Assembly (NCBI GenBank): GCA_041661725.1
Contig: JBAZTX010000003.1
Span: forward strand, 218,794 to 282,793
From: Patescibacteria group bacterium
Lineage (GTDB): Bacteria > Patescibacteriota > Patescibacteriia > 2-12-FULL-60-25
DNA: 64,000 nucleotides
Reading direction: 5' to 3'
Every line of letters begins with the position of its first letter. Position 1 is the stretch's first letter. Under the pieces are notes generated by a model that was not told the origin of the DNA, did no database searches, and saw only the letters and a program-made list of their open reading frames with translations. The position numbers and the translations under genes were made by a program. Of this stretch, positions 24,443 through 64,000 are shown piece by piece.

Positions 24443-24508
24443 TGCGCTCCTCCTTGTGAAGTTTCGACGTCTTTTGCGAAGGGCTAATTCCCTGGGCATT
24501 GACTGAAG

Positions 24509-29746: not shown

Positions 29747-29909
29747 TGACGGCCTGCCGACGCCGTCCTTAAACTCAAGTCGACCGTCCCCATTTCGGAC
29801 GCTTCAGCTCTCACTCTGCTGCCCTTAGCTTTATAGCGCAGGCAGCTCTTTTTTTTAACTAAAATTTTTTAATTGTACATTGTTCCTTGTTAATTGTATG
29901 ATTGTTCCC

Positions 29910-30497
29910 ATGTCATTGGTTGATTACCAAAAAAACACAGATGAGGAACTGGCGTCCATAGTGCCTACGGACCACAGGGCTTTTGTGCCTTTGGTGAGGC
30001 GTTATGAATCCAAACTTTTGGCTTATATCAGGCGCATCAGTGGATTCCAAAAGGAGGATGCGGAAGATATTTTGCAGGATGCTTTTGTCGATGCTTACCG
30101 CCATATTGCCGGTTTTGATCCGCATTTGAAGTTTTCCAGCTGGATTTATCGTATAGTACATAACAGGACGATCTCGGCTTACCGCAAGCACAAGTCATCT
30201 TTTAACAATGTTTCCATAGATGACGAGGATATGGGTTTTGAAAGATTGCTGGCCGCAAAAGAGGAAAGTCAGAATTTGGTAGAAAGTTCATTAAACTCAA
30301 AAGTCATAAAACAAATATTAGACAAATTACCTCCTCGCGATAAGGAGGTGTTGGTCTTGGCATATATCGAAGAAAAGTCATACGAGGAAATGAGCGACAT
30401 TTTGCAGGCTCCCATTGGCACTGTAGGCACATGGATCAGGCGCGCCAGGCAAAAGTTCGCAAAATTGGGAGATGAGTATCCCAACCTAATAAGATAA
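29910..30497 (+). CDS. ECF-type RNA polymerase sigma factor
   Basis: Region 2 (EDILQDAFVDAYRHIAGFD...FSSWIYRIVHNRTISAYRK) and region 4 (LPPRDKEVLVLAYIEEKSYEEMSDILQAPIGTVGTWIRRARQKF). Confidence 0.85.
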   Translation: MSLVDYQKNTDEELASIVPTDHRAFVPLVRRYESKLLAYIRRISGFQKEDAEDILQDAFVDAYRHIAGFDPHLKFSSWIYRIVHNRTISAYRKHKSSFNNVSIDDEDMGFERLLAAKEESQNLVESSLNSKVIKQILDKLPPRDKEVLVLAYIEEKSYEEMSDILQAPIGTVGTWIRRARQKFAKLGDEYPNLIR

Positions 30498-56534: not shown

Positions 56535-56712
56535 AATAAACGCCAATATGATACAGCGTCCCGCGTCCCGCGTCCATCGTCCCACGTTAGCGGTCAAACC
56601 TTGACTTTTTGAGTTATTTATGGTGGTCTATGCGTATCTCGTATATTCTATACGAAGGTCTTCGACAACCTAAAAGACGGCTATGGCGGCCGTCAAACCA
56701 GGGAGAAAGACA

Positions 56713-58716
56713 ATGTCTCACCACGTACTGTCCGTACTGTATTCGATCGTTGGACGGAGGGGAGCGTTGTCGCTGGTAACCCTCCTCGTCACTCTTCTCG
56801 TCGCGCTGACTGCGCAGACCGCGCGTGCCGACGACAACCCGTACGCTTCTGAAGCCTGCGTGACGACGATCAACCCCGACAAGGTGATTGGCGACAAGCA
56901 CTTCAGCGTCATCACCATCAACAAAAGATTGGCGCACGAGAGTCCTAAGACGTGCAGTCTTCGGACCGCGCATCAGATACACCCGATCGTCGTCGACGGC
57001 AAGCAGCTTGATGTCGAGTCCTGGTTGCGCAGCGTGTACGCCGCCAATCAGAGCGAGCATCCGACGGTTTTGTGCCGTTGCGTGTCGCGCTCCGGAAAGG
57101 TGTCGCAGTGCTCAACCGGAACAGATTCGTTCTGCTCCGATGGCACAGTAGCCAACATCATGGGCGTACCATCCAACGGGTGGAAGGCTTATATTCTCAT
57201 TCCGAGCACGTTAATGCTTACTCAAGAGCAGAGGAACATCGCTGCCGCCAAGGCCGCATGTGCCGAGGCAAGCGGTGCGAGCGCCATTAATGCGTGTCGC
57301 GAAGCAGGCCTTCTTCTGCAGACTCCCGGTCCCGCGGTCCCTTATGTCAGCGATGCAGAGATCTTCAAGAAGGAGATGGAAGCTTCGAAGGCCAAGGTCG
57401 CGGAGATGACGACCAGGCTCGCGCAGATGGATGAACAACTGGTCGAAACCCAGAAGGCGCTTGCCGCTGCGCGCTCTGATGCGAACTCATGGTTGTTGGG
57501 AGTCGTAATAGAGGCGATTGCGTACGCCGTTCTTAACTTGGTTCTCGCCTGGTACATCTGGACCAAGCGAAAGCTCGCAAAAGAGCTCAAGAAAGAACGC
57601 GCGGCAAACGAGGAACTCAACCGTGCAAACCTGGAGTTGCATGCAGGGCTGGCTAAGGCCGGCGACTTCTTGAAACAACAAGGCCTCGAACATCGCAAGG
57701 CCATGTCGCGGCTTGAGAACGAAGCGCGTGATGAAATCAGGCGCCTCAAGGATGAAAACAAAAAGCTCGATCAAGAGCTGAACAAGACCAAGAATGTCTT
57801 GCGCAACGTCAATATCGACAAGGCGACGAAAGAGGTTGAGGAAATCCGACAGGAAATTGCTAGACTCAACCTGCTCCGCACCGGCGACGTCGAGGTCTTG
57901 AGTCAGCGCTTGAGTCAGATTCCCGGCGAAGCCGCCGCTCTAACTCAGCCGTCCGACAGACGTGCTGACAAGATGAATAAGGTCATTGAATTCTACAGCG
58001 GTGAGCTTGGTGATCTCATCCAGGGCTGTGCGCCGGACGGTTACAGTCTCGTGCCGCCGGCTATGGACGACATGGATCAGGCGAAGCGTTTGGTTGCCAA
58101 GATCGCGCGCCTTGTCGCCGACAAGGAAATTGAACTCGAGGCGCTGCGCCAAGCGGCTCCTCTCGCAGTTCGGCCTTTGAACGACAACGCCGCTAGTGCG
58201 GCTGACTCTGCATCTTCCGCGGGCGCGGCTGATTCAGCCCCCGCAGGAAGTCCTAAGGACATCGACGACGCGACCATGATTCGCGCCGTGGACAAAGTTG
58301 TTGACCTCTTGTCCCACTGGTTCGAAGCTCTGCGCCGCGTTGCAGAACTTGAAACGCGCATCAAGACGTCGCAAGACGTTGTTCGCGCTCTCAAAGATCC
58401 GTTCAATATACCGGCAGTGCAGTCGGGGCTCGATGCGCATCGCATCGAGTTGGGAGACGCTCGCAAAGAGGAGAATGAGCTAAGTAATAAGCTCAACTCG
58501 CTGGGAGCGAATCGACTCACGCTCCGCGCGGCGGAAGTCTCCAAGGATGACTACGTTGATCTTGTGAAGGTAAAGTCGATCATTCTCCAAGAACTGATTG
58601 ACGTCTTGAACCATGCGGCTCCGGCCGCAAGAGTTGGCGCTGCGCCTACTGCGTATGCGCATACTATTCCGCCGCCAAACGGCACAGACGATCCAAATGG
58701 TGGACACTCCACCTGA
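56713..58716 (+). CDS. GC-rich membrane protein: Cys-rich extracytoplasmic domain, one TM, long cytoplasmic coiled coil
   Basis: Signal/anchor LVTLLVTLLVALTAQTARA, 12+ Cys in the first 230 aa, TM WLLGVVIEAIAYAVLNLVLAWYIW, then heptad-rich K/E/L sequence. SD gggaga. Confidence 0.7.
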   Translation: MSHHVLSVLYSIVGRRGALSLVTLLVTLLVALTAQTARADDNPYASEACVTTINPDKVIGDKHFSVITINKRLAHESPKTCSLRTAHQIHPIVVDGKQLDVESWLRSVYAANQSEHPTVLCRCVSRSGKVSQCSTGTDSFCSDGTVANIMGVPSNGWKAYILIPSTLMLTQEQRNIAAAKAACAEASGASAINACREAGLLLQTPGPAVPYVSDAEIFKKEMEASKAKVAEMTTRLAQMDEQLVETQKALAAARSDANSWLLGVVIEAIAYAVLNLVLAWYIWTKRKLAKELKKERAANEELNRANLELHAGLAKAGDFLKQQGLEHRKAMSRLENEARDEIRRLKDENKKLDQELNKTKNVLRNVNIDKATKEVEEIRQEIARLNLLRTGDVEVLSQRLSQIPGEAAALTQPSDRRADKMNKVIEFYSGELGDLIQGCAPDGYSLVPPAMDDMDQAKRLVAKIARLVADKEIELEALRQAAPLAVRPLNDNAASAADSASSAGAADSAPAGSPKDIDDATMIRAVDKVVDLLSHWFEALRRVAELETRIKTSQDVVRALKDPFNIPAVQSGLDAHRIELGDARKEENELSNKLNSLGANRLTLRAAEVSKDDYVDLVKVKSIILQELIDVLNHAAPAARVGAAPTAYAHTIPPPNGTDDPNGGHST

Positions 58717-60405: not shown

Positions 60406-60434
60406 AAAAACCCCGACTTGACGTCGGGGTTTTG
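60406..60434 (+). terminator. Intrinsic terminator of the rpsF-ssb-rpsR operon
   Basis: aaaaaccccgac-ttga-cgtcggggtttt. Confidence 0.85.
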
Positions 60435-60469
60435 ATTAGCGTGTTCATTTGTGATTTACTATCAATCAT

Positions 60470-60967
60470 ATGACAGATCAATCTTTAGAGCATCATCGTC
60501 CTTCAGCGGACGAATATTTCCTCGAAATAGCCAAGACCGTCGGCTCGCGCGGCACTTGCGACCGCGGACGCATCGGCGTCGTTCTTGTCAAAGATAAAAG
60601 AATCTTGGCAACCGGTTATGTCGGTTCGCCGATCGGCACGCCGCATTGCGACGAGGTCGGACACCAAATGCACAAAGTCACGCATGAGGACGGAACCGTG
60701 ACTCAACACTGCGTGCGTACTTCCCACGCCGAGATAAATGCAATCTGCAATGCGGCCCGTTACGGCGTTGCCATCGACGGCGCAACTTTGTATGGTAAGT
60801 TTGAGCCGTGTTATACTTGTGCCAAAGCGATGATAAACGCCGGCATCAAGCGCGCTGTTTACGAGCGTTGCTATCACGCGGCAAGCGAATCCAGAGAACT
60901 GTTCAAACAAGCCGGCGTGGAGCTTGTCGTGTTGTCCGACGAAGTCGAGCAGTACGCGAATCAATAA
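60470..60967 (+). CDS. comEB: dCMP deaminase (ComEB-type)
   Basis: DEYFLEIAKTVGSRGTC.R..IGVVLV, HAEINAI, PCYTCAKAMINAGIKRAVY. Confidence 0.9.
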   Translation: MTDQSLEHHRPSADEYFLEIAKTVGSRGTCDRGRIGVVLVKDKRILATGYVGSPIGTPHCDEVGHQMHKVTHEDGTVTQHCVRTSHAEINAICNAARYGVAIDGATLYGKFEPCYTCAKAMINAGIKRAVYERCYHAASESRELFKQAGVELVVLSDEVEQYANQ

Positions 60968-61020
60968 ATGACATTTAATAACCAATAAACAATTCTGGCT
61001 ATCGTCTATCGTCTAATAAT

Positions 61021-61947
61021 ATGAACAATCCCGAACAAATACAGTCCGCCGCGCAAGAGAGTGAAGACTCCGGAGTGCGGGAGAAAAATGAAAGATTGAC
61101 GCTGCGTGTCAAACCGGATGAGGCGCTTGAGCCATACGAAGAAAACATTAAGCCTCAATTGGAGAGATATGTCGCAAATGCGGGGGAGTTTTTGAATCAA
61201 CTGCATGTTTTGCGCGATCTCGAAAAAAGTAATTTTTCCAAAGATAAAGAATCAATAAAAAATGCAAAAGAAAACTTACTTTCTTTGTTCAATGCAAAGT
61301 TGTTTGTAGATTTTTACGGTCGCGACAGCGGTGAGGCGCTTGAGAGTTTGTCCGGTCTGCTGGATCTGCCGGAAGATGTAAAAGAAGAATTGCAAAATAG
61401 GGTTTTAGCACGTTCTTCAAAAGATGTTGCAACTTTGCGGCAAAAGCAAGAGGAGATAACACAGACGGAGATTGATGTTAATCCTCCAATTGCATCAGCG
61501 TTTGAAGATGCACCTGTGGCAATCCCTGTGGCGGAAGTTTCTACATCCCGTCAAATCCCCAAAGAAAAACCTGCAGCTGAGACGGAAAGCGAAAATGAAT
61601 TAATGATGAAATTGACGCTTGCCAAAAGAGTTTTGCGCGATATGGAGAAAGAGCTCAGGAAGAACTATGCAGACGCTGAAGGTGATGAGAGAAAAACTAT
61701 AAAATTAAAATTGGATGAAAACGGCAAGCTGCAAGATCGTTTGGCAAATGAGTTAGATGACGTTTTAAGTCAAATGCCATCGCTGCATCAAGGAGAAAGA
61801 GATTTGTTTCCTGATCAAGGCAGCGAGCATATGGTTGTTGTAAGGCAGTCTCTTGCTAAGGTTCTGACTGATATTAATAAATTCATTGAGAAGCAGACGA
61901 ACGGCGTCATTCATCAGCCTTCTGATTGGCTCGAGCTAAATAGATAA
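61021..61947 (+). CDS. Acidic, helical/disordered hypothetical protein
   Basis: 308 aa, E/K/D/L-rich, ending ...HQPSDWLELNR. It is convergent with a small CxxC protein gene 21 nt away. Confidence 0.65.
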   Translation: MNNPEQIQSAAQESEDSGVREKNERLTLRVKPDEALEPYEENIKPQLERYVANAGEFLNQLHVLRDLEKSNFSKDKESIKNAKENLLSLFNAKLFVDFYGRDSGEALESLSGLLDLPEDVKEELQNRVLARSSKDVATLRQKQEEITQTEIDVNPPIASAFEDAPVAIPVAEVSTSRQIPKEKPAAETESENELMMKLTLAKRVLRDMEKELRKNYADAEGDERKTIKLKLDENGKLQDRLANELDDVLSQMPSLHQGERDLFPDQGSEHMVVVRQSLAKVLTDINKFIEKQTNGVIHQPSDWLELNR

Positions 61948-61967
61948 AAAAAGAGGACCCAGATGGG

Positions 61968-62330
61968 TCAAGATGCGCAGAGCTCGATCATAGCTCTGCG
62001 TATTTCGTTTAGCTTGTTAGTCGCCTGCCTTGAGACGCCGAGTTGTTCCGCTTTTGGCAGAGCGGCGGCAATGCAGCGCGGGAAATTTTCGAAGTGTTCC
62101 CAGTCCGGCATATCGTCGGCAAATGCTTCATTGAGCTGCGGTGTTCCCCGCAGAATGTCAAGAAAGGCATTGATCAACACTACGAAATCCCATTGCTTGA
62201 AGGTGCTTTCGCGAGCAACCTTCCTACACATCTCGTGGGTCGGGTTGCCGTTGCCGTCAATCACGATCTCTTCGGCCGTTGATCCGGGTTGATTACAATG
62301 GATGCAGACGAGATTGGAGTTCACGTCCAT
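61968..62330 (-). CDS. Small GC-rich CxxC...HxxC (zinc-ribbon-like) protein, paralog 1
   Basis: 120 aa. N-terminus is VCIHCNQP-x17-THEMC. SD gaggtg. The 5' region is homologous to that of 63451-63879. Confidence 0.65.
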   Translation of the reverse strand: MDVNSNLVCIHCNQPGSTAEEIVIDGNGNPTHEMCRKVARESTFKQWDFVVLINAFLDILRGTPQLNEAFADDMPDWEHFENFPRCIAAALPKAEQLGVSRQATNKLNEIRRAMIELCAS

Positions 62331-62442
62331 GATGCACCTCGTTTTGAGCGGTTTGGAGCATGACCGAGTAGTCCTCGGCCGAATGGAGCACCTTGGCAGA
62401 TATATTGAATCATGTCAAGGCTAAAAGGTAAAAAAACCGGCT

Positions 62443-62471
62443 TTGACAAAAGGGTAAAAAAATGCTATACT
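62443..62471 (+). promoter_or_regulatory. Near-consensus sigma70 promoter upstream of 62601-63404
   Basis: TTGACA, 17 nt spacer, TATACT. The ~125 nt leader ends in the hairpin cccaagc-gatta-gcttggg + tttaaaatt (62558-62585), 16 nt before the ATG. Confidence 0.65.
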
Positions 62472-62600
62472 GTATTAAGTAAATCAAAATAAAAGCTAAG
62501 TTATGCAGAGTTCGCGTATTGATTCAAGATTTTATACATCATAAAAAGTTAAAAACGCCCAAGCGATTAGCTTGGGTTTAAAATTAACAAAAACAAAAAT

Positions 62601-63404
62601 ATGTATTCACCCGAAATGAAGTTATCGCCCGAGAACATACCGCAGCTTCCGGACAAGGACGTTGAGTCTGTAAGGACATCGCCTTCTGAAATGGCGCCGA
62701 CTATTAAGATGCTTAAGCCGGAAGATGTGCACGGCCCGTTGGAAGCGATGCCGGAGACTTTGGTGAAAACAGTCAGGCCGGAGGCCGTTGGGATGGAAGA
62801 GTATGTTGAGCCGGACGAGTCTATTACTTTAAAAACAGATGCTACTGTCGCTCGCGAAAAACAATCGCTCGCCGAAAAAGCGCCGACAGTCAGAACTGAG
62901 GAATCTGTTGCGCTTAAAGCTTCGGAAGTCCAAACATTTAAAACAGGCGAGACGGTCGCAAGAGAAGATGCTTTGGCAAAAGCGAGAGCCGATTTTCATG
63001 AAAGCGGGATTGCGGCATCCAAAGAAACGATTAGAAATTTCGATCAGATGCACATGGAGTATGATGCAATCCACGATCGCGTAACAAAGTGGCTGGATAA
63101 GCTGGACGAGATGCTTGCACAACCAAGTCCTTTGTCCGAACTTGCCGGTCTTAAAGATCAGGCGATGAAAGCAAAAGCACAGATCGAGGGCCAGCTTGAT
63201 TTGGAACAGTACGGTATTGCAAAATCAGAATCGGGTGCTGCCCCGTTTAAGGTTGAAGTTCCCACCGACTGGCCGCAGCTTGAGGCTCGTTTAAATGAAA
63301 TAGCGGAAACGATGAAAGCCGGACATACTTTGAGGGAGCAGCCATTGCCCACCATCAAAGAACAGCCGACAGCCAACGCTCAAGGTCCTGAAGCAACGGC
63401 GTAA
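62601..63404 (+). CDS. Acidic, disordered/helical hypothetical protein
   Basis: 267 aa with repeated (K/R)(T/P)E-type segments. It contains ...VPTDWPQLEARLNE, reminiscent of the PSDWLELN end of 61021-61947. Confidence 0.65.
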   Translation: MYSPEMKLSPENIPQLPDKDVESVRTSPSEMAPTIKMLKPEDVHGPLEAMPETLVKTVRPEAVGMEEYVEPDESITLKTDATVAREKQSLAEKAPTVRTEESVALKASEVQTFKTGETVAREDALAKARADFHESGIAASKETIRNFDQMHMEYDAIHDRVTKWLDKLDEMLAQPSPLSELAGLKDQAMKAKAQIEGQLDLEQYGIAKSESGAAPFKVEVPTDWPQLEARLNEIAETMKAGHTLREQPLPTIKEQPTANAQGPEATA

Positions 63405-63450
63405 AATTATTAAAAAAAGAGCCCTCACTTCCAGAGTCGAAGTGGGGGTT

Positions 63451-63879
63451 TTAGTTTGCGCCGGTAGAAGCCAGATGTCGTATCCGGTCCCGCAGACCGT
63501 CGACCGTCTCGACCAGACGGGATTTGTTGTTGGTTGTGAAAGACGAGCTCTCAACCAACTTCGACGCCTGATCCAGACACTTGATGTAGTCGATGATGGT
63601 AGCCTCTCCGGGCACCCAGTATTCCCTGAAAAGCTCCATGAGCTCGTCAAGGGGTTTCGGTAATTCGCGGCAGAGCGCGGTGTATGCCTTGAGCCAGAGG
63701 CCATGGGCTGTGGACGCGATCGCGAGCTGATGCACATCTTTTTTCAAGCAGCGGCGATGCATATTCGCCTCGCTCTCGTATTTATACTCCGGGCCGTGCA
63801 GAATCGGTTGTTCGCAGAGCTTGCAGACCGGTTGTGTCGAGGATGAATCCAGGGGCTGTCTGATGGTTTTGGTGCTCAT
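63451..63879 (-). CDS. Small GC-rich CxxC...HxxC (zinc-ribbon-like) protein, paralog 2
   Basis: 142 aa. N-terminus is VCKLCEQP-x15-MHRRC. SD gaggtg. TTGACA lies at 63959-63964 (minus strand). Confidence 0.65.
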   Translation of the reverse strand: MSTKTIRQPLDSSSTQPVCKLCEQPILHGPEYKYESEANMHRRCLKKDVHQLAIASTAHGLWLKAYTALCRELPKPLDELMELFREYWVPGEATIIDYIKCLDQASKLVESSSFTTNNKSRLVETVDGLRDRIRHLASTGAN

Positions 63880-64000
63880 GACTCACCTCGTTTTTGGTTG
63901 GGAGCGCGGCTCCGCGTGAACGGAACCGAATGGGATAGCTTGGCAAAAATCCGGGTTTTTGTCAAGATGTCTGTATATGAATTTGGACAAAGTTATTATA

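Follow-up and report, generated by a model that had tools for sequence, protein, structure and literature searches.

The end of the 64,000-nucleotide (nt) window analysed here, a stretch of contig JBAZTX010000003.1 from a Patescibacteria group bacterium, raises the question of what exactly has been duplicated in it. Two plus-strand genes for acidic proteins, acidic-1 (61021–61947, 308 amino acids (aa), isoelectric point (pI) 4.85) and acidic-2 (62601–63404, 267 aa, pI 4.78), each face a small minus-strand gene, m1 (61968–62330, 120 aa) and m2 (63451–63879, 142 aa), and the initial annotation took this arrangement for a two-gene convergent module occurring twice in tandem. The four open reading frames (ORFs) lie where that annotation placed them, with closely spaced convergent stop codons (20 nt between acidic-1 and m1, 46 nt between acidic-2 and m2) and hairpin terminators in between. 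We consider it probable, with considerable room for doubt, that an ordinary local duplication copied just one small gene, promoter and 5′ untranslated region (UTR) included, and that the leader of this gene is a dyad shared with epmA, the gene next to m2. What looked like a two-gene module results from the dense packing of convergent genes, and the locus is a caution that such an arrangement, where genomes are compact, can be mistaken for a repeated pair of genes.

The acidic genes do not behave as two copies of one gene. BLASTP between acidic-1 and acidic-2 gave a best E of 0.15, which is not significant, and the comparison of their ortholog profiles with hhalign gave E = 0.4 at a probability of 0.15%, aligning only nine residues around PxDW. 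The motif P(S/T)DW.(E/Q)L, which had been proposed as common to both proteins, is absent in the acidic-1 ortholog of the relative L009. Judged by these comparisons, acidic-1 and acidic-2 are non-homologous, unrelated neighbours, and neither family has relatives in Pfam, NCBIfam, PHROG, PADLOC, PDB or IMG/VR. They also appear to belong to different transcription units. The gene rpsR is followed by a strong terminator (60408–60432) and then by dcd; because the 53-nt gap between dcd and acidic-1 contains no terminator and a shorter acidic-1 ortholog overlaps dcd by 29 nt in L009, acidic-1 appears to be the last gene of the dcd transcription unit. Acidic-2 is preceded by a putative promoter of its own (62443–62471, plus strand), a consensus sigma-70 extended −10 sequence TTGACA-17-TATACT with TG. 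That the acidic genes have terminators in common with the small genes reflects the compactness of the genome.

The small genes present the opposite picture at the level of profiles. BLASTP finds no match between the two small proteins; their ortholog profiles align in hhalign with E = 3.5e-4 across 66 C-terminal columns, and one hidden Markov model (HMM) made from both subtypes retrieves both subtypes. In a MAFFT alignment of ten sequences the CxxC, the H..C and a (Y/F)xxC(L/I)xxAL motif are all in register, and both window proteins carry the N-terminal signature V/I-C-x-x-C-x-Q-P ... H-x-x-C that had drawn attention to them. The claimed relatedness of m1 and m2 is thus invisible to pairwise search and recovered by profiles. 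With an identity of now about 18%, they are very distant paralogues, two subtypes of one small orphan family.

The DNA upstream of m1 and m2 is alignable, as had been noted, in five collinear blocks that keep the same order and spacing in both copies: cTTGACA, N14, TGCCAAG(G/C)T, N3, CCATTCGG, a variable hairpin, GCTCC.AACC, AAAACGAGGTG, N3 and cATG. The local alignment score is 25, compared with 14.4 ± 2.1 for dinucleotide shuffles, none of which reaches 25 in 2000 trials, and the 64-kb window contains exactly two copies of the 20-nt block TGCCAAGSTNNNCCATTCGG, where 0.26 would be expected by chance. Chance similarity is ruled out by the shuffles, by this block count and by a covariance-model search. 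Across 127 kb, made up of the window and nine related loci, the covariance model of the leader detects only the small-gene instances, and pattern scans of genome and metagenome contigs, which return the known loci, two more lineages (L009, L010, L011) and a few chance matches, place the leader only upstream of small genes. The idea that the duplication had included the regulatory leader therefore stands for the small gene and falls for the acidic gene, which has no homologous partner.

It should be noted that a regulon-wide motif was considered and set aside, the extra matches in the genome, metagenome and viral scans (L008, L013, L015, L023–L033) being judged chance. Two metagenomic matches, L013 (1643–1682) and L015 (1276–1315), share seven extra flanking bases, namely GTC before TTGACA and GG and TC around ATTCGG. 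Their downstream genes are unrelated to the small-protein family, and the shared flanks are probably a coincidence.

The predicted promoter of m1 occupies 62390–62418 on the minus strand, with the −35 TTGACA at 62413–62418, N14, TGC at 62396–62398 and the −10 hexamer CAAGGT at 62390–62395; that of m2 occupies 63937–63965 on the same strand, with TTGACA at 63960–63965, N14, TGC at 63943–63945 and CAAGCT at 63937–63942. A Shine-Dalgarno sequence (SD), GAGGTG, lies at 62335–62340 (minus strand) before m1 and at 63884–63889 (minus strand) before m2. The unusual CAAG(G/C)T at the −10 position is confirmed, being kept in 10 leaders from about eight lineages, and the initial annotation had offered a non-sigma-70 promoter as one explanation of it. 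For a sigma-70 extended −10 promoter we looked for a −35 near TTGACA, a 17-bp spacer, TG one base before the hexamer, and A at position 2 with T at position 6; all of these are present in both window leaders and in the leaders of all relatives. The canonical promoters of this genome, at 62443(+), 47117(−) and 53189(−), read TTGACA-N14-TGC-TATACT or -TAAATT. The leaders use the identical TTGACA-N14-TGC frame, their CAAGNT hexamer preserves A2 and T6, and six bases past the hexamer all 10 leaders have a purine. We infer that the leader contains a sigma-70 extended −10 promoter of the form TTGACA-N14-TGC-CAAGNT, and the non-sigma-70 option is not borne out.

Downstream of the predicted start, the m1 and m2 mRNAs would each carry a 5′-proximal stem-loop of 7 bp (62362–62380 and 63908–63927, both on the minus strand), identified by folding and covariation. 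In the alignment of ten leaders 89.7% of cells are paired as against 76% in shuffles, four of the seven pairs show compensatory changes, and none of 500 shuffles reaches the observed covariation score; registers slid along the alignment are only 31–52% paired. Because the six G-U cells fall in the sense of the small gene, the hairpin points to an RNA structure on the small-gene strand and not to a DNA palindrome. When each leader is folded alone, the hairpin begins 3–5 nt from the proposed start.

The suggestion of a conserved RNA leader is upheld as far as this covarying hairpin and no further. RNAalifold finds no conserved structure in the leaders besides the 5′ hairpin, so sequestration of the SD or an alternative leader structure is unsupported. 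At Rfam gathering thresholds the whole window gives one tRNA only and no leader or riboswitch family, and in 60900–64000 the best Rfam match is RT-2, with 19.3 bits against a gathering score of 40. This sub-threshold match (62354–62533, plus strand, E = 0.13) covers the m1 leader and the acidic-2 promoter and is treated as noise.

A 5′ stem-loop, an open A-rich spacer and a strong GAGGTG SD would together form the textbook layout of a 5′ stabiliser. Stem-loops at the 5′ terminus stabilise bacterial mRNAs according to Emory et al. (1992) and to Hambraeus et al. (2002), two papers cited in PMC3997798. The small-gene leaders resemble the E. coli ompA and papA and the B. subtilis aprE stabilisers in that the hairpin stands a few nucleotides from the predicted 5′ end, the ribosome-binding region is open, and the structure is kept while its sequence is free. 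They differ in the flanks of the hairpin, ATTCGG and GCTCC, whose sequence is conserved although mere stabilisation would not require it.

The odd −10 hexamer can be accounted for by symmetry. The leader promoter is a dyad of the form CTTGRCA-N14-TGYCAAG (7-14-7), and we infer that this symmetry is what imposes CAAGNT. The contig extension L001, which came up with close relatives in an exact-protein look-up and comprises the window from 54 to 64 kb and 10 kb past the window end, shows that the gene directly past position 64000 is epmA, encoding the elongation factor P (EF-P) lysine ligase (282 bits against the EpmA/GenX profile, with a cut-off of 286.9) and divergent from m2; unrelated hypothetical genes follow. 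The further modules that had been anticipated there are absent, as neither the genes of the extension nor the leader covariance model, which finds two copies only, give a third. Read on the plus strand, the dyad offers a putative divergent promoter for epmA at 63940–63979: TTGGCA (63940–63945), N14, TGT, CAAGAT (63963–63968), 8 nt and the ATG (63977–63979). A sigma-54 reading of the plus-strand TTGGCA was rejected, since by inspection no TTGC stands at the right spacing.

The bases outside the dyad differ between the two subtypes of leader. The ATC before TTGACA, which is what makes CAAGAT on the other strand, is present in six of six m2-type leaders, and its place is taken by GCC or GGC in three of three m1-type leaders, whose dyad has no divergent gene beside it. 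From CAAGAT to the epmA ATG the distance is 8–9 nt in all m2-type lineages, and epmA has no SD. The predicted starts lie near 63931(−) and near 63975–63977(+), about 45 bp apart, and each −35 coincides with the TG and the first half of the −10 of the opposite promoter. Other leaderless-looking starts occur in the genome, at dcd, 24499(−) and 29910(+). Because of the dyad, the conserved ATC, the 8–9 nt spacing, the missing epmA SD and these other starts, the 29 bp are best read as two completely overlapping divergent promoters, one for m2 and one for a leaderless or near-leaderless epmA.

The leaderless-looking starts have the following form. At dcd, TACTAT stands 7 nt before the ATG directly after the rpsR terminator (60408–60472); a 190-aa ORF at 24499(−) is preceded by TTGACT-17-TATGTT-9-ATG; and the gene at 29910(+), which resembles an extracytoplasmic function (ECF)-type sigma factor as judged from its sequence, is preceded by TTGTAC-18-TATGAT-7-ATG. 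The use of an SD is split among the gene starts of L001. GC-rich hypothetical genes, including m1 and m2, carry GGAGGT or GAGGTG 5–8 nt before the ATG, and rpsF, ssb, rpsR, dcd, epmA, both acidic genes and an LTD-domain gene have none. Recent acquisition of some genes could lie behind this split, or the coexistence of two regimes of translation initiation.

Symmetric promoters are reported to be able to drive divergent transcription, with one RNA polymerase binding event blocking the other, and the bidirectional promoters of Warman et al. are described as often used for mRNA pairs (10.1101/2020.01.31.928960; PMC12825309). In that class the −10 elements overlap and the starts are 7–25 bp apart, most often 18 bp (10.1101/2020.01.31.928960). 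The m2/epmA dyad is like these promoters in its inherent symmetry, in being readable on both strands and in its mutual exclusion, all of it predicted here. It differs in that each −35 overlaps the opposite −10, that the overlap of the promoters is complete and that about 45 bp separate the predicted starts, which places it outside their definition. What the locus offers is therefore a candidate for a fully overlapping, dyad-symmetric divergent promoter whose geometry falls outside the 7–25 bp bidirectional class.

Which copy came first is suggested by the distribution of the family. When 1.84 billion representative proteins were searched, three times by word index and once exhaustively with an HMM, about seven clusters at 50% identity came up; the family is a tiny orphan zinc-ribbon family, nearly confined to one Patescibacteria clade. 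Two clusters are of m1 type: P0003, to which the window m1 and P0002 belong and which is annotated as a hypothetical protein in the Patescibacteria group bacterium metagenome-assembled genome GCA_028688515.1, and P0005. Four are of m2 type, namely P0006, with which the window m2 groups, P0007, P0011 and P0009, and the L009 protein, read from its contig, is one further m2-type sequence. Because the m2 type is widespread, including the distant P0011 and the high-GC P0009, and m1-type members are limited to the window, L006, L004 and L011, the m2 type is probably ancestral and m1 a later copy.

Gene order in the relatives agrees with these distributions. Both copies are present in L006. In the more distant L009, epmA is divergent from m2, m2 converges on acidic-2, and the shorter acidic-1 that overlaps dcd follows, with no m1; the still more distant L017 has the same order from epmA through m2 to acidic-2. 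The convergent pair of m2 and acidic-2 is found in the window, L006, L009, L016 and L017–19; the two genes are syntenic in every Patescibacteria relative in which both flanks of m2 are visible. In L004, epmA is followed divergently by an m2-type promoter and hairpin, a 46-nt stretch and the m1 SD, and then by m1 converging on acidic-1. By manual alignment the 46-nt stretch resembles a decayed m2 SD and start and is probably a degenerate relic of them; m2 and acidic-2 were lost there in a single deletion.

The high-GC metagenome contig L020 (1–2991) carries P0009 as a small gene 20 nt after a ClpA/B-like AAA+ gene, with no acidic partner and no leader. P0009 is a clear m2-type homolog (CSLCEQPILYGP...HRRCL..VHQE). 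The ClpA/ClpB-like gene before it encodes a double-AAA+ protein, a 202-aa protein without annotation is encoded after it, and the base composition of the host is very unlike that of the window genome. The codon usage of the small genes also stands out: G+C at third codon positions (GC3) is 0.62 and 0.70 in the small genes and 0.40 and 0.49 in the acidic genes, which confirms the compositional contrast noted earlier, and it is about 0.50 in most long ORFs of the window, a few of the long ORFs reaching 0.65–0.70. The occurrence of P0009 and the raised GC3 of m1 and m2 hint at horizontal acquisition.

Between the window and L009 the proteins are identical to 88% (dcd), 87% (ssb), 80% (rpsR) and 72% (epmA), and to 56% (acidic-2), 34% (m2) and 26% (acidic-1); at the DNA level the epmA–m2 intergenic region is 73% identical and housekeeping coding DNA 72–77%. 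The intergenic leader is as conserved as housekeeping coding DNA, and the constraint on it is stronger than on the m2 protein. A leader conserved like housekeeping genes thus stands ahead of a fast-evolving protein.

On the single-gene interpretation, an ancestral m2, the type still represented by the window m2, would have stood in divergent orientation beside the EF-P lysine ligase gene epmA. Within a single Patescibacteria sub-clade, this gene m2 and its leader would have been copied to the far side of the neighbouring acidic gene, giving m1, after which the proteins would have diverged to about 18% identity and the leaders would have retained their five blocks. Transcription of a small gene would begin at the conserved purine about 4 nt before a stem-loop of 7–9 bp, the 5′-terminal stem-loop would protect the mRNA from 5′-end-dependent decay, and an unstructured A-rich spacer with the strong GAGGTG SD would follow it. 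One 29-bp element would load RNA polymerase in either orientation, never in both at once, and transcription from it would run leftwards into m2 and rightwards into a leaderless epmA. The dyad would have passed to m1 as well, where the reverse −10 would then have decayed.

Several observations weigh against this account. Many housekeeping genes of the genome have no SD, so that a missing SD alone is no proof of a leaderless epmA. CAAG(G/A)T persists in the m1-type leaders, where there is no divergent leaderless gene to require CAAGNT. The near-invariant ATTCGG and GCTCC that flank the leader hairpin are unexplained by promoter, SD or conserved pairing and probably answer to a further constraint, for example a bound factor. 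The use of the promoters, the sites of initiation and the leaderless epmA are all read from sequence, and the direction of copying from m2 to m1 rests on distribution and not on a rooted tree. Finally, given the synteny of m2 and acidic-2 and their joint absence in L004, that one pair may be functionally linked.

This last point also favours the view that each small zinc-ribbon protein and its facing acidic protein form a functional pair, for instance a regulator with its partner, duplicated as a unit and possibly in the service of convergent-transcription control. The persistent convergence of m2 and acidic-2 in the relatives listed above speaks for it, as do the overlapping 3′ ends, with a likely acidic-1 terminator inside the m1 coding sequence (CDS), and the fact that small and acidic proteins both evolve far faster than their housekeeping neighbours. 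We nevertheless hold it to be quite improbable, since the acidic proteins are non-homologous and no two-gene unit can have been duplicated, and since synteny within one clade may be simply inherited. The strict pairing on which the initial annotation relied does not hold either: acidic-1 is in the dcd operon and is retained without m1 in L009, and the high-GC homolog P0009 has no acidic neighbour. Nor is there charge complementarity, as m1 itself is acidic (pI 4.94; m2 is neutral, at 7.66). An antitoxin-like pair had been named as an example. The likeness to type II or zinc-ribbon toxin–antitoxin systems consists in small, fast-evolving gene pairs with one zinc-ribbon-like partner; the differences are that the genes are convergent and not co-transcribed, that the acidic partners have 267–308 aa, that pairing is not strict, and that no toxin, antitoxin or defence family in Pfam, NCBIfam, PHROG or PADLOC is matched.

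Two further explanations concern the leader itself. It may be mainly a regulatory target, the dyad or the flanked 5′ hairpin serving as binding site of a factor, perhaps the zinc-ribbon protein itself, that regulates the small gene and epmA jointly; this is compatible with the promoter interpretation, and we rate it as rather unlikely. Noncoding DNA conserved like housekeeping coding DNA ahead of a protein that is 34% identical, invariant flanks around a covarying hairpin that have no other explanation, the same blocks retained by both paralogues through a long divergence, and an N-terminal ribbon that is DUF2175-like with one weak L24e match (E = 0.13) all fit such a target. Set against them are the lack of a recognised DNA- or RNA-binding domain in the small proteins, the missing leader at the high-GC homolog P0009 and the lack of further copies of the element in the 64-kb window and the nine related loci (127 kb). 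A bolder version, in which the zinc-ribbon proteins are a new family of autoregulators that bind the dyad or the 5′ hairpin, toggle RNA polymerase between their own gene and leaderless epmA and so couple EF-P modification to a signal, with the dyad as a new class of mutually exclusive bidirectional promoter, is speculative, and we think it very improbable. Major questions are unaffected by this locus unless binding or transcription start data back the regulatory interpretation. The leaders might instead be promoters of an alternative sigma factor, such as the ECF-type sigma encoded at 29880–30497 (judged from its translation), in whose favour the non-consensus yet conserved −10 CAAG(G/C)T can be cited. 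We regard this as extremely unlikely, given a perfect TTGACA at −35, a spacing and TGC identical to those of the genome's consensus promoters, the retained A2 and T6 of the hexamer, the absence of a GGAAC/CGT-type ECF signature, and a CAAG(G/C)T motif that occurs only at small genes.

The proteins encoded by the duplicated gene can be described in part. Both m1 and m2 have a CxxC...HxxC N-terminus and a four-helix C-terminal domain. Pfam DUF2175 (PF09943), a family of uncharacterised archaeal proteins, matches 4 of 10 family members at E ≤ 10 over the N-terminal 40 or so residues, with 25.7 bits for P0007 (gathering cut-off 25.1), 17.3 bits for the window m2 and no match for m1. The likeness consists in C-x2-C, about 18 residues and H-x2-C; the difference is that the match covers profile positions 4–45 of 98 and that the four-helix domain of the small proteins is extra. 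A literature search found no paper mentioning DUF2175. Ribosomal_L24e gives a weak match in one family member (E = 0.13); L24e is an RNA-binding zinc ribbon, and the N-terminal ribbon presumably also resembles the TRASH-type zinc ribbons. Taken together, these matches suggest that the small proteins are zinc-binding, with a DUF2175/L24e-type ribbon and a new helical bundle. We would guess, with low confidence, that they act as a nucleic-acid- or protein-binding regulator or adaptor.

The AlphaFold2 model of m1 shows a confident helical bundle at residues 45–120 with the N-terminus unmodelled; that of m2 is weaker (predicted local distance difference test score, pLDDT, of 60) and has the same helix order. 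Foldseek searches with both models against PDB and BFVD gave nothing significant, and the C-terminal four-helix domain has no counterpart in Pfam, PDB or BFVD. Searches of the four window proteins against Pfam, NCBIfam, PHROGs and PADLOC gave sub-threshold noise only, and no relatives suggesting a phage origin were found in IMG/VR.

Several weak matches were set aside. Sigma-factor profiles matched at E = 0.02–0.08, which we do not trust and treat as noise, and a McdB match to the small-protein profile was dismissed as noise from helical patterns. The same probably applies to a collinear match of the myoglobin E–H helices to family profile columns 59–132 (E = 0.013), in which the proximal His is not conserved; haemoglobins also occur among the non-significant Foldseek matches of the small proteins. 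A zinc-binding anti-sigma (ZAS) factor was rejected, since the motif is C-x2-C...H-x2-C and not H-x3-C-x2-C, zf-HC2 is not matched and the ECF sigma gene is 32 kb away.

The three hairpins at the convergent gene ends all have the form of an intrinsic (Rho-independent) terminator, i.e., a GC-rich hairpin with a U-run. The m1 terminator (61946–61969, minus strand) is a GACCC-atct-GGGTC hairpin followed by a T-run and overlaps both stop codons. Within the m1 CDS, close to its stop codon, lies a 14-bp hairpin (61971–62005, plus strand; z = −5.3) that has a U-rich tail on that strand and is likely to be the terminator for acidic-1. The hairpin at 63418–63452, which stands between an A-run and a T-run (z = −4.95 on the plus and −2.7 on the minus strand), would serve acidic-2 and m2 in both directions. 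The perfect 14-bp hairpin spans the last 12 codons of m1 (...IRRAMIELCAS), and the encoded tail EIRRAMIELCAS is invariant across three orthologs; this invariance may owe as much to a role in terminating the convergent acidic-1 transcript as to the function of the protein.

Acidic-2 has two further features. Its predicted 5′ UTR is about 125 nt long (62478–62600) and contains a GC-rich hairpin (62558–62576) with T-rich tails on both strands; the ortholog in L006 has a far shorter UTR without the GC-rich hairpin, which may be an inserted attenuator or terminator. The N-terminal half of the protein (62601–63000) contains five or six short repeats of the form APT[IVL][KR] or xT[LF]KT[DG][AE]T[VI]A, which are kept in the orthologs of L006, L009 and L017 and look like repeated linear motifs.

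Upstream of rpsF, a GC-rich gene (56683–58716, GC3 0.66) encodes a coiled-coil protein of 677 aa that has a hydrophobic segment at its N-terminus and a membrane helix in its middle part. Its length differs widely among close relatives, from 590 aa in L002 through 677 aa in the window to 782 aa in L009.

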